A stretch of 42,401 nt of DNA from a virus, in IMG/VR virus record IMGVR_UViG_3300004155_000002; one strand, 5' to 3'. Position numbers and translations under genes: made by a program. Shown here one piece after another: positions 36,170-42,401 of this stretch; the stretch's first letter is position 1, and every line of letters begins with the position of its first letter. A model generated the notes under the pieces. That model saw only the letters and a program-made list of their open reading frames with translations, searched no databases and was not told the DNA's origin.

Positions 36170-37300
36170 TCAAAATGGTACTCGTGTGCAACCGCTTTCG
36201 CGGATCTTTTTCCTCAAGGCGTTACCCTCGCGGCGACTTTTCGTAACGCGATCTGCCATATCATCTGGGTTAATTCCCGATTCAAAATATGCGCGAAGCG
36301 CGTCAAAATTGCTCAAAATGGTATTCAGTCCGTGCACGGTTCGCACCTCAAATGCTCGCCTGGAAGTCGGATACCACGCTAGAAACTCGATCACATATTC
36401 GCGATCCGCGACATCCAAAAGCTGTTTGATATAGACGTTGTTCATTTTCCCGCGTGTGGGAGGTTTCCCATAGGTATGCTCCCATGCCTTAGCATAGGCG
36501 TTCCATGGCTCATTTGTGGGCGCTTCTTTTTTCGATGCTTCCTTTTGTGGCGGTGGTTGCTTTTGGCTCTTTTCCGCCCGCTGGCGATTTTTGGAAGGTC
36601 GTTTGGTGCCGGTGTCGCCTCCCTCCCCGTTTGATTCAACCTCGGGGCTCTTTCCCCCATTTTCCCCCGGTGCGAATGCGCCGGGGAGATCCGCCGCCGA
36701 AGGCGCGGCCGAGTGCGAGTGCGGATCGGGAAATGTATTTGAATTATTCTTATACATTTGATCTGATATTAATATGGACGGTTTTCGGGCGTCCCCCGAG
36801 ACGTCCCCCGAGACGTCCCCAGAGACGTCCCCAGAGACGTCCCCCGAGGCGTCCCCAGAGACGTCCCCCGAGGCGTCCCCCGAGACGTCCCCCGAGACGT
36901 CCCCCGAGGCGTCCCCCGAGACGTCCCCCGAGACGTCCTTGTTTTTCTTTTTTCTGAATTTCTCTTTTCTTTTCAGAGTTCTTTCGTGAGTGGCGAGACA
37001 CTTCCCGGTGTGTTCAAACCAGTCATGAATCACCATTTGCCCGGCCTCGTTCAGCACGATCCAGCCCCGCGAAATTAGTACCGCGAGAAATTTCTCGGGC
37101 TCGCCTTCCCAACGGGCGGCGTCCGCAATGTCGAGTGCCTCGGCTTCGGCTAGCACTCCGTCTGGTGCGTTCGTCCATGCCCACGCCCACAGCGAGGCGA
37201 GGTGTCCTACGAAATGCACCCCAGCGAGCCCCAGATCTCGGGCCGCTTTCCGTGTTTTCAGATTCCCAAAAATTTCGGTATTCACTTGCGCGTATGCCAT
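36170..37300 (-). CDS. Replisome-organiser / replication-initiator-like protein with a (GDVS/GDAS)n linker
   Basis: N-terminal domain HFVGHLASLWAWAWTNAPDGVL...FLAVLISRGWIVLNEAGQMVIHDWFEHTG resembles phage replisome-organiser N-domains, from memory. The central linker is encoded by the 12-bp tandem array. Confidence 0.55.
   Translation of the reverse strand: MAYAQVNTEIFGNLKTRKAARDLGLAGVHFVGHLASLWAWAWTNAPDGVLAEAEALDIADAARWEGEPEKFLAVLISRGWIVLNEAGQMVIHDWFEHTGKCLATHERTLKRKEKFRKKKNKDVSGDVSGDASGDVSGDVSGDASGDVSGDASGDVSGDVSGDVSGDVSGDARKPSILISDQMYKNNSNTFPDPHSHSAAPSAADLPGAFAPGENGGKSPEVESNGEGGDTGTKRPSKNRQRAEKSQKQPPPQKEASKKEAPTNEPWNAYAKAWEHTYGKPPTRGKMNNVYIKQLLDVADREYVIEFLAWYPTSRRAFEVRTVHGLNTILSNFDALRAYFESGINPDDMADRVTKSRREGNALRKKIRESGCTRVPF
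36788..36938. repeat. Tandem array of 12.6 copies of the 12-bp unit G(A/G)CGTCCCC(C/A)GA; iteron-like, candidate origin core
   Basis: Units counted base by base from 36788. Most units contain the palindrome GACGTC. Flanked by AT-rich 36733-36787 and T-rich 36939-36985. Confidence 0.9.
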
Positions 37301-37309
37301 TGGGGGGCC

Positions 37310-37584: not shown

Positions 37585-38232
37585 TCAAAACCCAGGATCG
37601 AAAATGGAAAGCGTGAGATCTGCACTTCCGGGCGTCAATACCTCGAAGACGCCGGGGGCGCGTTCGACTACGGCGTTGCGGTTGTTCAGATCTATAGATC
37701 GTGGGGCGGGGATCGGCTCGGGGGGAGGATCTGAAAACAGATCGCTTAGGACAACCATAGTGGCCAGGGCCTCAACCAGGGGGCAGGACGCTGCCGCCTC
37801 GGGCACGCTCGCGGGCGCGTCTGTTTCTATAGGGCGCTCACCGACTGCGACCGCTTCCCGGGTATTGTTTTCCGCTTCCAGGCGCGCGGGCACGGCTTCG
37901 GGGGCCGCTTCCACCACGGGCACCGGCACCATTCCCCCGACTCGGGTATTCCAGGCTTGCCGCGCCAGGGCCGCCGACGAGAAAAGCCCCAGGCGGGCAT
38001 CGCACGCGAAGCACCGGGGAACAAATTGTTGCCGCCCCCGCTCCCGGATTTCGCATTTTTCGCTGCCGCAAAACGGGCAATCAACCAGATCCCGGCCCGG
38101 CCTGGGACTCGCCATTGCCGGGGTTTCCAGGGCCGCCGCTTCCGCTTTTGCCCTGGCCTTCGCCTCGGCCGCCGCCAATTTCTCGGCCTCGCTTTTCCGG
38201 GGCCGCCCCCGGCCGCGTTTCACTTCGCTCAT
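37585..38232 (-). CDS. Lar-family (restriction alleviation) zinc-ribbon domain protein with an AT-hook-like N-terminus and long C-terminal extension
   Basis: RGRGRPRK at the N-terminus. CPFCGSEKCEIRERGRQQFVPRCFACDARLGLFSSAALARQAWNTRV matches the Lar pattern CPFCG...C..C...A...WN.R. Confidence 0.7.
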   Translation of the reverse strand: MSEVKRGRGRPRKSEAEKLAAAEAKARAKAEAAALETPAMASPRPGRDLVDCPFCGSEKCEIRERGRQQFVPRCFACDARLGLFSSAALARQAWNTRVGGMVPVPVVEAAPEAVPARLEAENNTREAVAVGERPIETDAPASVPEAAASCPLVEALATMVVLSDLFSDPPPEPIPAPRSIDLNNRNAVVERAPGVFEVLTPGSADLTLSIFDPGF

Positions 38233-42009: not shown

Positions 42010-42239
42010 AGCCGAAAGACCGCACGGGCAAGCGGTATGGCCGACTAGTTGCCGTCGAATATCGCGGATCAGTTTTGGTGGGAGTTTGCAAGTCGGCCGC
42101 GTGGTTTTGCGAATGTGATTGCGGAGGTAGCGGTGTATTTTCCGCGTATATGCTGCAAAAGGGCCATCGGAAATCCTGCGGATGCATCCGATTTACTGGC
42201 GCAAAAGGGGGCAATGATGGCACTCGTGATCACTCGTAA
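42006..42239 (+). CDS. Small zinc-binding phage protein (GKRYGRLVAV...WFCECDCGG...SCGC motif)
   Basis: ATGA overlap. The G.R.GRL.v...W.C.CDCG...SCGC pattern recurs in many phage/plasmid small proteins, from memory. Confidence 0.55.
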   Translation: MKPKDRTGKRYGRLVAVEYRGSVLVGVCKSAAWFCECDCGGSGVFSAYMLQKGHRKSCGCIRFTGAKGGNDGTRDHS

Positions 42240-42401
42240 AGAGGGGCAGGCTTTCGAGATCTATATTGGCGATCAGAAGATCAATATCAAAATATCCAAA
42301 ATCGAAAGCGGACGGCAAGCCCGCCTCGCCATCGAAGCCCCGAAGGAAATGCGAATCATACGGATCGATGAGGTGCCGAATGGCCACGCGAAACAAAACC
42401 C
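42214..42401 (+). CDS. csrA: CsrA-like RNA-binding translational regulator (63 aa); the ORF crosses the contig junction and stops at TGA 62-64
   Basis: My own translation: MMALVITRKEGQAFEIYIGDQKINIKISKIESGRQARLAIEAPKEMRIIRIDEVPNGHAKQNP. AAAGGGGG RBS. Follows the CsrA pattern L.LTR+.GE...IGD...v.v..i.G.qvRlgI.APKEv.i.R.E. Not in the ORF track because no stop occurs before the window end. Confidence 0.8.
   Translation, partial: MMALVITRKEGQAFEIYIGDQKINIKISKIESGRQARLAIEAPKEMRIIRIDEVPNGHAKQN
42342..42401. repeat. Right copy of the 60-bp terminal direct repeat
   Basis: Identical to bases 1-60. Confidence 0.95.

Follow-up and report, generated by a model that had tools for sequence, protein, structure and literature searches.

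Phage lambda carries its replication origin inside the gene of its own initiator, O, where a set of iterons is followed by an AT-rich region of 40 bp (PMC5043065). The number of iterons varies among lambdoid phages (PMC7466680), with 4 to 6 in lambdoid and Stx phages. In phage SPP1, oriL is likewise situated inside gene 38, and gp38 binds in-gene direct repeats beside an AT-rich unwinding element (PMC6316719). The origins of staphylococcal pathogenicity islands (SaPI) contain 6 to 12 short iterons that are bound by a winged-helix domain and lie beside an AT-rich region (PMC9371898), while the iteron plasmids P1, RK2, R6K and pSC101 have helix-phased repeats next to an AT-rich region and an initiator that recruits the host helicase (PMC5043065, PMC4980987). 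Here, we consider a candidate origin in a stretch of viral DNA of 42,401 nucleotides, IMG/VR record IMGVR_UViG_3300004155_000002, which is referred to below as the window. It contains an array of 12-bp tandem repeats at 36786–36940, within a minus-strand gene (36170–37300) for a replication initiator or replisome organizer of 376 amino acids. On the basis of sequence comparison, we estimate a probability of about 0.7 that these repeats are the initiator-binding iterons of a phage replication origin, located where the initiator's own gene codes for the linker.

Tandem Repeats Finder places the array at 36790–36938, with a period of 12, 12.4 copies, 92% matches and a score of 256; no other tandem repeat of the window comes near it in strength. 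In register, the unit reads G(A/G)CGTCCCC(C/A)GA on the plus strand and GGGGACGTCTC(G/T) on the sense strand. The array comprises 13 units centred on ACG(T/C) at an exact spacing of 12 bp; 12 of these are good copies and the unit nearest the AT-rich tract is degenerate. Of the ten GACGTC hexamers in the 42.4 kb, nine belong to the array, and the remaining one compares with 4 to 9 expected outside it. The 10-mer GGGACGTCTC, with at most one mismatch allowed, has 13 matches, 12 of them within the array, against about 2 expected by chance; none of 100 shuffles attains 13. Beyond the single chance-level match outside the array, the clustered site is absent from the rest of the genome. These counts confirm the initial annotation of a tandem 12-bp array in a replication gene with GACGTC in most copies, except for its figure of 12.6 copies, given the value of 12.4 and the degenerate last unit. 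The array is in frame on the minus strand within the open reading frame (ORF) 36170–37300 and encodes DVSG/DASG repeats, in agreement with the (GDVS/GDAS)n linker that had been proposed between the N- and C-terminal domains. On one side it adjoins a tract of 75–85% AT (36733–36787), a candidate DNA-unwinding element that includes the most AT-rich 40-mer of the whole window (85% AT, at 36736). Single-strand folding of the array region is strong (z = -6.1), as expected for tandem palindromes, and is not used as evidence.

The encoded protein consists of an N-terminal domain, a disordered linker and a helical C-terminal domain. Residues 1–143 match phrog_9474, 'replication initiation protein', with an E value of 2.4e-31 over profile positions 1–142, and the protein has weaker matches to other initiator and replisome-organizer PHROGs. 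In BFVD, the viral proteins nearest to the model in fold bear the names replisome organizer (E 1e-7) and primosomal protein 1 (TMt 0.74). Both the profile and the fold matches support the earlier view of this product as a replication organiser. The annotation of phrog_9474 was itself made by inference, and we know of no member that has been tested experimentally. No Pfam model matches the 376-residue protein, the N-terminal domain (residues 1–121, encoded by 36938–37300 on the minus strand) having 0 families at E up to 1, and no relative is found by sequence in the PDB. In an AlphaFold2 model built on 65 sequences, the predicted local distance difference test score (pLDDT) is above 90 for residues 11–120, which form helices, a beta-hairpin (81–91) and the start of a long Lys-rich helix (94–124). 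Most of residues 132–236, including the array-encoded peptide, score below 50 and are mostly disordered; a helical domain follows at 264–368. All PDB fold matches of the model are winged-helix domains (MarR, CRP, RuvB domain III) but non-significant, at E of at least 0.5. The N-terminal domain, a putative DNA-binding domain, may have a winged-helix-like fold, with the long Lys-rich helix at its end. The C-terminal domain (residues 264–376, encoded by 36170–36511 on the minus strand) has no Pfam or PHROG match and may serve to recruit host replication proteins; no helicase or helicase-loader gene is recognised in the early region of the window. The N-domain family is large, with 7866 representative clusters at E<1e-3 in an exhaustive HMMER search. 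A word-indexed search with the N-domain only found nothing, a full-length search was swamped by low-complexity matches and yielded 2 true homologues, and tblastn with the protein against cultured phages gave 7 matches, all distant and to the N-domain only.

With lambda, the locus shares the position of the origin, here a candidate, within the initiator gene, in the linker-coding part after the DNA-binding N-domain: the annotated lambda iterons lie at nucleotides 349–433 of gene O, and the array lies at nucleotides 363–511 of its gene, after the N-domain helix. Furthermore, both have sites that are palindromic or quasi-palindromic, with an AT-rich tract next in the sense direction, and in both the N-domain and iterons form a specificity module apart from the C-domain. 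There are also differences. Lambda has four iterons of 18–19 bp spaced 20–24 bp apart, in contrast to twelve contiguous sites of about 10 bp at 12-bp intervals in the window and a site period of 11 bp in its relatives, and no P-like helicase loader gene lies downstream of the gene described here. There is no homology to the O protein either: a comparison of the profile with lambda O by hhalign gives a probability of 0.1%, and PF04492 (Phage_rep_O), which lambda O matches at E 5.7e-36, does not match the window protein. The parallel with lambda originally drawn therefore stands in its layout of in-gene iterons followed by an AT-rich tract; the proteins are not homologous.

The other systems each resemble the locus in part. 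In SPP1, too, repeats and an AT-rich element lie inside the origin-binding protein's own gene, but this phage has its own loader and helicase (gp39 and gp40) and a second origin, oriR, neither of which is seen in the window; the N-domain matches none of the Phage_rep_org_N or DnaD-like Pfam families at E up to 1. The SaPI origins have very short iterons in a similar number (6–12) next to an AT-rich region. In these elements, however, the iterons are situated downstream of the rep ORF and flank the AT region on either side, and Rep is a self-loading helicase, whereas the candidate iterons of the window are in-gene and confined to one flank of the main AT tract, and the window protein is without an ATPase domain. 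The iteron plasmids likewise have helix-phased initiator-binding repeats beside an AT-rich region, the binding in the window being a candidate one, but their iterons, of about 17–22 bp, are monomer-binding sites located outside the rep gene, and no Rep_3-type domain is detected in the window protein. Most likely, as judged from sequence, the locus represents a known kind of origin layout that occurs here in an unrelated protein family, with sites that recur once per DNA turn.

Whether the repeat is an element of DNA or of the peptide becomes apparent from the DNA of eight N-domain relatives. The closest, L001 (69% N-domain identity), has GGGACGTCTCTC in 5.2 identical copies at the corresponding site, with the same 10-bp core as the window and a period of 12. 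Three others, L035, L036 and L038 (51–55%), have an (A/G)GAACGTTCC array at the same gene position with a period of 11, so that successive copies are in different frames and encode KNVP, RTFQ and ERSE. L040 (46%) has eight units, including the 11-mer GAGACGTCCCC, which is identical to the plus strand of the window yet inverted relative to the gene and encodes PETS. In all five the array is followed by a degenerate unit G(G/A)ACGCC, by ATATTA and then by a GATC- or AT-rich tract. The change of frame at period 11 and the inversion in L040 identify the repeat as a DNA element rather than a peptide element; a linker that is purely a peptide tandem repeat does not fit relatives that keep the DNA core out of frame or inverted. 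The initial annotation had held that absence of the array from relatives with a conserved initiator would speak against an origin; relatives with this type of N-domain in fact keep an array with an ACGT core in place. On the level of the family, an array of period 10–12 is present in 22 of 30 non-redundant genes, 40–300 nucleotides after a conserved HDW motif, and the period is 11 in fourteen, 12 in seven and 10 in one. The flanking DNA, of which 202 kb served as control, has such arrays at a rate of 0.035 per 260 bp. Spacing by about one helical turn, regardless of the reading frame, is the pattern of binding sites and not that of peptide repeats. A scan of viral contigs for two adjacent units of the exact pattern returned the contig of L001 itself together with L031, L033 and L034. 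The latter three were judged to be chance two-copy matches: those in L031 and L034 lie in unrelated ORFs, and that in L033 lies in the short interval that separates two divergent genes.

Within the gene, the array and the AT tract are also the DNA with the highest conservation. When the window is compared with L001, identity is 86% in the array and 77% in the 57 columns after it, against 64% in the DNA that encodes the N-domain (where third codon positions, at 37%, are saturated) and 43% further downstream. A conserved box (36755–36788) immediately follows the good copies and reads, in the sense direction, GACGCC-GAAAACC-(G/A)TCCATATTA-...-(A/G)ATCAGATCA. It is composed of the last degenerate unit, ATATTA and the remnant of a GATC pentamer repeat, in this order, and is present in L035, L036 and L038 as well. 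On the opposite side of the array lies a tract that is A-rich on the sense strand (36939–36985), with a 40-mer of 75% AT at 36945 that ranks fifth in the window. The array is therefore bracketed by unusually AT-rich DNA on both sides, as was claimed originally, but this second tract has a coding explanation: it encodes KRKEKFRKKKNK, the Lys-rich end of the confidently predicted N-domain helix 94–124, and this accounts for its AT-richness. The relatives encode K/R-rich sequence at the same place. An origin role for this tract is possible, but its composition can be explained without one.

Within the AT tract proper, an imperfect palindrome of 29 bp (36731–36759; 14-nucleotide arms, 86% complementary) resembles the palindrome beside the AT region of lambda. 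It is not conserved in L001 and was dropped as evidence for an origin. The same palindrome spans a recombination junction at 36746 between the N-terminal cassette and the C-terminal module, where the window, L001 and L045 have (T)CAAATAC(A/T)T in common; because of this shared sequence the junction may be a recombination hotspot. Another observation concerns a microsatellite of 5- or 6-bp period, with at least 3.5 copies, in 25 of 32 genes of the initiator family. It lies just downstream of the 10–12-bp array in L001, L003, L007–L010, L025, L028, L035–L039, L043 (Faecalibacterium phage Lagaffe) and L044 (Paenibacillus phage Harrison), whereas a few family genes have it elsewhere or have no 10–12-bp array. 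Examples are AGATC, AGACC, ACCTA, CCAAG and CTCCGT, the last of which encodes (SP)n; in the window a remnant only, ATATTAATATCAGATCAAATG, is found at 36752–36772. This microsatellite may be a melting or single-strand-binding element, a half-site array or plain slippage of the linker.

A comparison with a syntenic sister phage indicates how the locus is inherited. This phage, L045 (42,658 bp), has its initiator, P0165, at 3001–4308. It shares 68–82% DNA identity with the window across the early region, and none is detectable in 36747–37307, a minus-strand segment that includes the N-domain coding region, the array and most of the AT tract. The two sequences become similar again abruptly at 36746, at TAATTCAAATAC, with about 89% identity up to the stop codon. 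The N-domain of L045 is 39% identical to that of the window, and its repeats are of another type, GTAACGCGTACA; they are arranged as GATGTAACGCGTACA, form two clusters and precede an AT tract. Conversely, the similarity of the window to the otherwise unrelated L001 is limited to this very segment, which can be described as an exchangeable 'origin-specificity cassette'. N-domain clusters of at least 69% identity have a common iteron class, and the relative with the conserved C-domain but a different N-domain has different repeats. These comparisons are suggestive of N-domain, array and AT tract travelling as one cassette, with a repeat type that tracks the N-domain and not the C-domain. The number of copies is variable as well: 12 units in the window, 5 in L001 and about 2 to 14.5 in the family. 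In the sister lineage, P0001 and P0165, from different samples, are 100% identical save for one extra higher-order unit of 54 bp (18 residues, two GTAACGCGTACA motifs), which is direct evidence of repeat-number polymorphism. The earlier suggestion that the copy number is prone to slippage and varies among isolates has thus been corroborated.

What is observed, namely the array, its position, its conservation as DNA, its recurrence in the family, its co-inheritance with the N-domain, its AT-rich neighbour and its variable copy number, leads us to infer binding by the initiator as dimers, melting, helicase recruitment and origin activity. The N-terminal winged-helix-like domain would bind each quasi-palindrome of about 10 bp centred on ACGT, probably as a dimer. 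As the 12-bp spacing is close to one helical turn, about a dozen bound units would make a continuous, slightly twisted protein-DNA filament. The strain of this filament could help to open the adjoining AT tract at 36733–36787, upon which the C-terminal domain would bring in the helicase, presumably that of the host, since the scan of the early-region genes revealed no recognisable phage helicase or loader. The early leftward operon would be transcribed through the origin, as happens in lambda.

Several points weigh against this proposal. The window array has a period of 12 and is in frame, so that the window alone cannot separate a DNA repeat from a peptide repeat in a disordered linker, and the variation between copies is mixed: 3 synonymous changes stand beside four Val/Ala changes, three of them in full GDAS units and one in the degenerate end unit. 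The winged-helix assignment is a predicted fold with the non-significant PDB matches given above, and no experimental report of binding or origin function was found for any member of the family. The cassette argument is not decisive, because an array between two domains must stay with one of them after any crossover. Moreover, the repeats are kept as DNA and change with the DNA-binding domain with two outliers, the distant proteins P0021 and P0018, which break a simple tree-like match of N-domain identity and repeat class. The minimum or switch in GC skew that had been anticipated near 36.8 kb is not seen: the turning points of the cumulative skew are near 34 kb and 39 kb instead, and the skew gives no support for an origin at 36.8 kb, but it follows gene orientation and is uninformative for a genome of this size. 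Finally, DnaA boxes occur at chance level (8 with at most one mismatch against 6 expected), with none near the array.

These points have to be set against other explanations. The array could be a low-complexity (GDVS)n expansion of the linker that arose by slippage and has no role as DNA, the origin being elsewhere. The predicted disorder of the encoded region (pLDDT below 50), the array period that is a multiple of 3, the unstable copy number and the many relatives that have plain (SP)n linkers from 6-bp units would all fit such an expansion. We nevertheless regard it as improbable: the DNA core is kept while the peptide changes (period 11 in L035, L036 and L038, inversion in L040), arrays of period 10–12 are about 20-fold enriched at this site throughout the family and mostly have period 11, no DNA of the gene is better conserved than the array, and the complete genome holds no other candidate that combines repeats with AT-rich DNA. 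A second idea is that the initiator binds the array mainly for control, by roadblock autoregulation, titration or handcuffing, with opening and initiation at another site. Plasmid iterons are indeed also used in copy control (PMC5043065), and it could be imagined that twelve contiguous in-gene sites would make an effective roadblock. Yet the motif is found nowhere else beyond chance, so that no second set of iterons marks another origin, and the array has the most AT-rich tract of the genome as its neighbour, conserved together with it; a purely regulatory array is accordingly an unlikely one.

A function in packaging (pac) or partition (centromere), or as a target related to restriction-modification that acts on the GACGTC palindromes, seems very improbable to us. 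Short tandem repeats can serve as centromeres, GACGTC is depleted outside the array (1 against 4–9 expected), and the genome extremely avoids palindromes of 6 bp. However, the array tracks the initiator N-domain through otherwise unrelated phages and no partition genes are seen among the ORFs scanned. Furthermore, the repeat core varies among relatives (GAACGTTC, GTAACGCG), which is to be expected for the site of a cognate binding protein and not for that of a shared host enzyme. An in-gene iteron origin is therefore the explanation that we prefer.

The genomic setting is that of a complete phage. The ends of the window repeat exactly over 60 bp (1–60 = 42342–42401), which indicates a complete circular or circularly permuted assembly with a unit of 42,341 bp. 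Late genes on the plus strand (about 3–30 kb) encode a terminase, a Mu-type portal, a head protease, the major head protein, a tail sheath and a tape measure, and the early block on the minus strand (33–40.6 kb) contains genes for a PDDEXK exonuclease, RecT, helix-turn-helix (HTH) regulators and a Lar-like protein in addition to the initiator gene. Among the ORFs scanned in 33.2–42.3 kb, CII-like and repressor-like HTH genes are present, and no integrase, partition, helicase or helicase-loader gene is recognised. Near-identical DNA was not found in cultured phages, nor was a prophage relative in a scan of genome contigs; by tblastn, the terminase has matches of at most 46% identity spread over many unrelated hosts. 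Rfam and tRNA scans gave nothing.

Two further features of the genome lie outside the origin question. A gene of the CsrA family (63 residues; PF02599, E 5.7e-11) spans the assembly junction, from 42214–42401 into 61–66, and is also found on the sister phage contig; a phage-borne global post-transcriptional regulator of this type may merit attention. The other is the strong bias in palindromes. CCGCGG, GGCGCC, GGGCCC, GGATCC, TGCGCA, AACGTT, ACCGGT, ACGCGT and CACGTG each have 0 occurrences against 9–31 expected, as part of an extreme genome-wide avoidance of 6-bp palindromes, while GATC (330 vs 216), AGATCT (26 vs about 5) and CTGCAG (30 vs 5–7) are over-represented. The phage has two genes for DNA methyltransferases on the plus strand, at 27–596 and 867–1679, one a C5-cytosine methylase (PF00145, E 5e-39) and the other a match to phrog_799, as well as the Lar-like restriction-alleviation gene (37585–38232, minus strand). 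Methyltransferases, Lar-like gene and palindrome avoidance fit together and suggest strong anti-restriction pressure.

For this uncultured 42-kb phage without a close cultured relative, the locus provides a concrete candidate pair of origin and initiator. The family-wide design, with iterons at one-turn intervals and usually a microsatellite of 5–6 bp, appears to be undescribed in the literature searched, and the N-domain family has neither a Pfam model nor a solved structure. It is possible, and we put it forward tentatively as a single joint proposal, that a large uncurated family of phage initiators shares this origin design: 5 to 15 contiguous palindromic sites in the initiator's own linker-coding DNA, spaced at one helical turn (11 bp; 12 in the window) and, in most members, directly followed by the microsatellite. 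If so, the initiator would cover the array in an unbroken filament, in contrast to the binding of spaced iterons by lambda O, and the microsatellite or AT tract would act as a specialised element for melting or single-strand capture, a geometry of origin melting other than those of the lambda and plasmid models. The odd repeat peptides of these initiators would then be accounted for by DNA that has to satisfy coding and binding requirements at once. For annotators, tandem peptides in these proteins such as (GDVS)n, KNVPRTFQERSE and DVTRT are best taken as by-products of DNA sites, and not as protein motifs or assembly artefacts. With binding sites that appear to lie in the initiator's own gene at one per helical turn, the family also offers thousands of natural combinations of initiator and site in which the co-evolution of recognition specificity may be studied.

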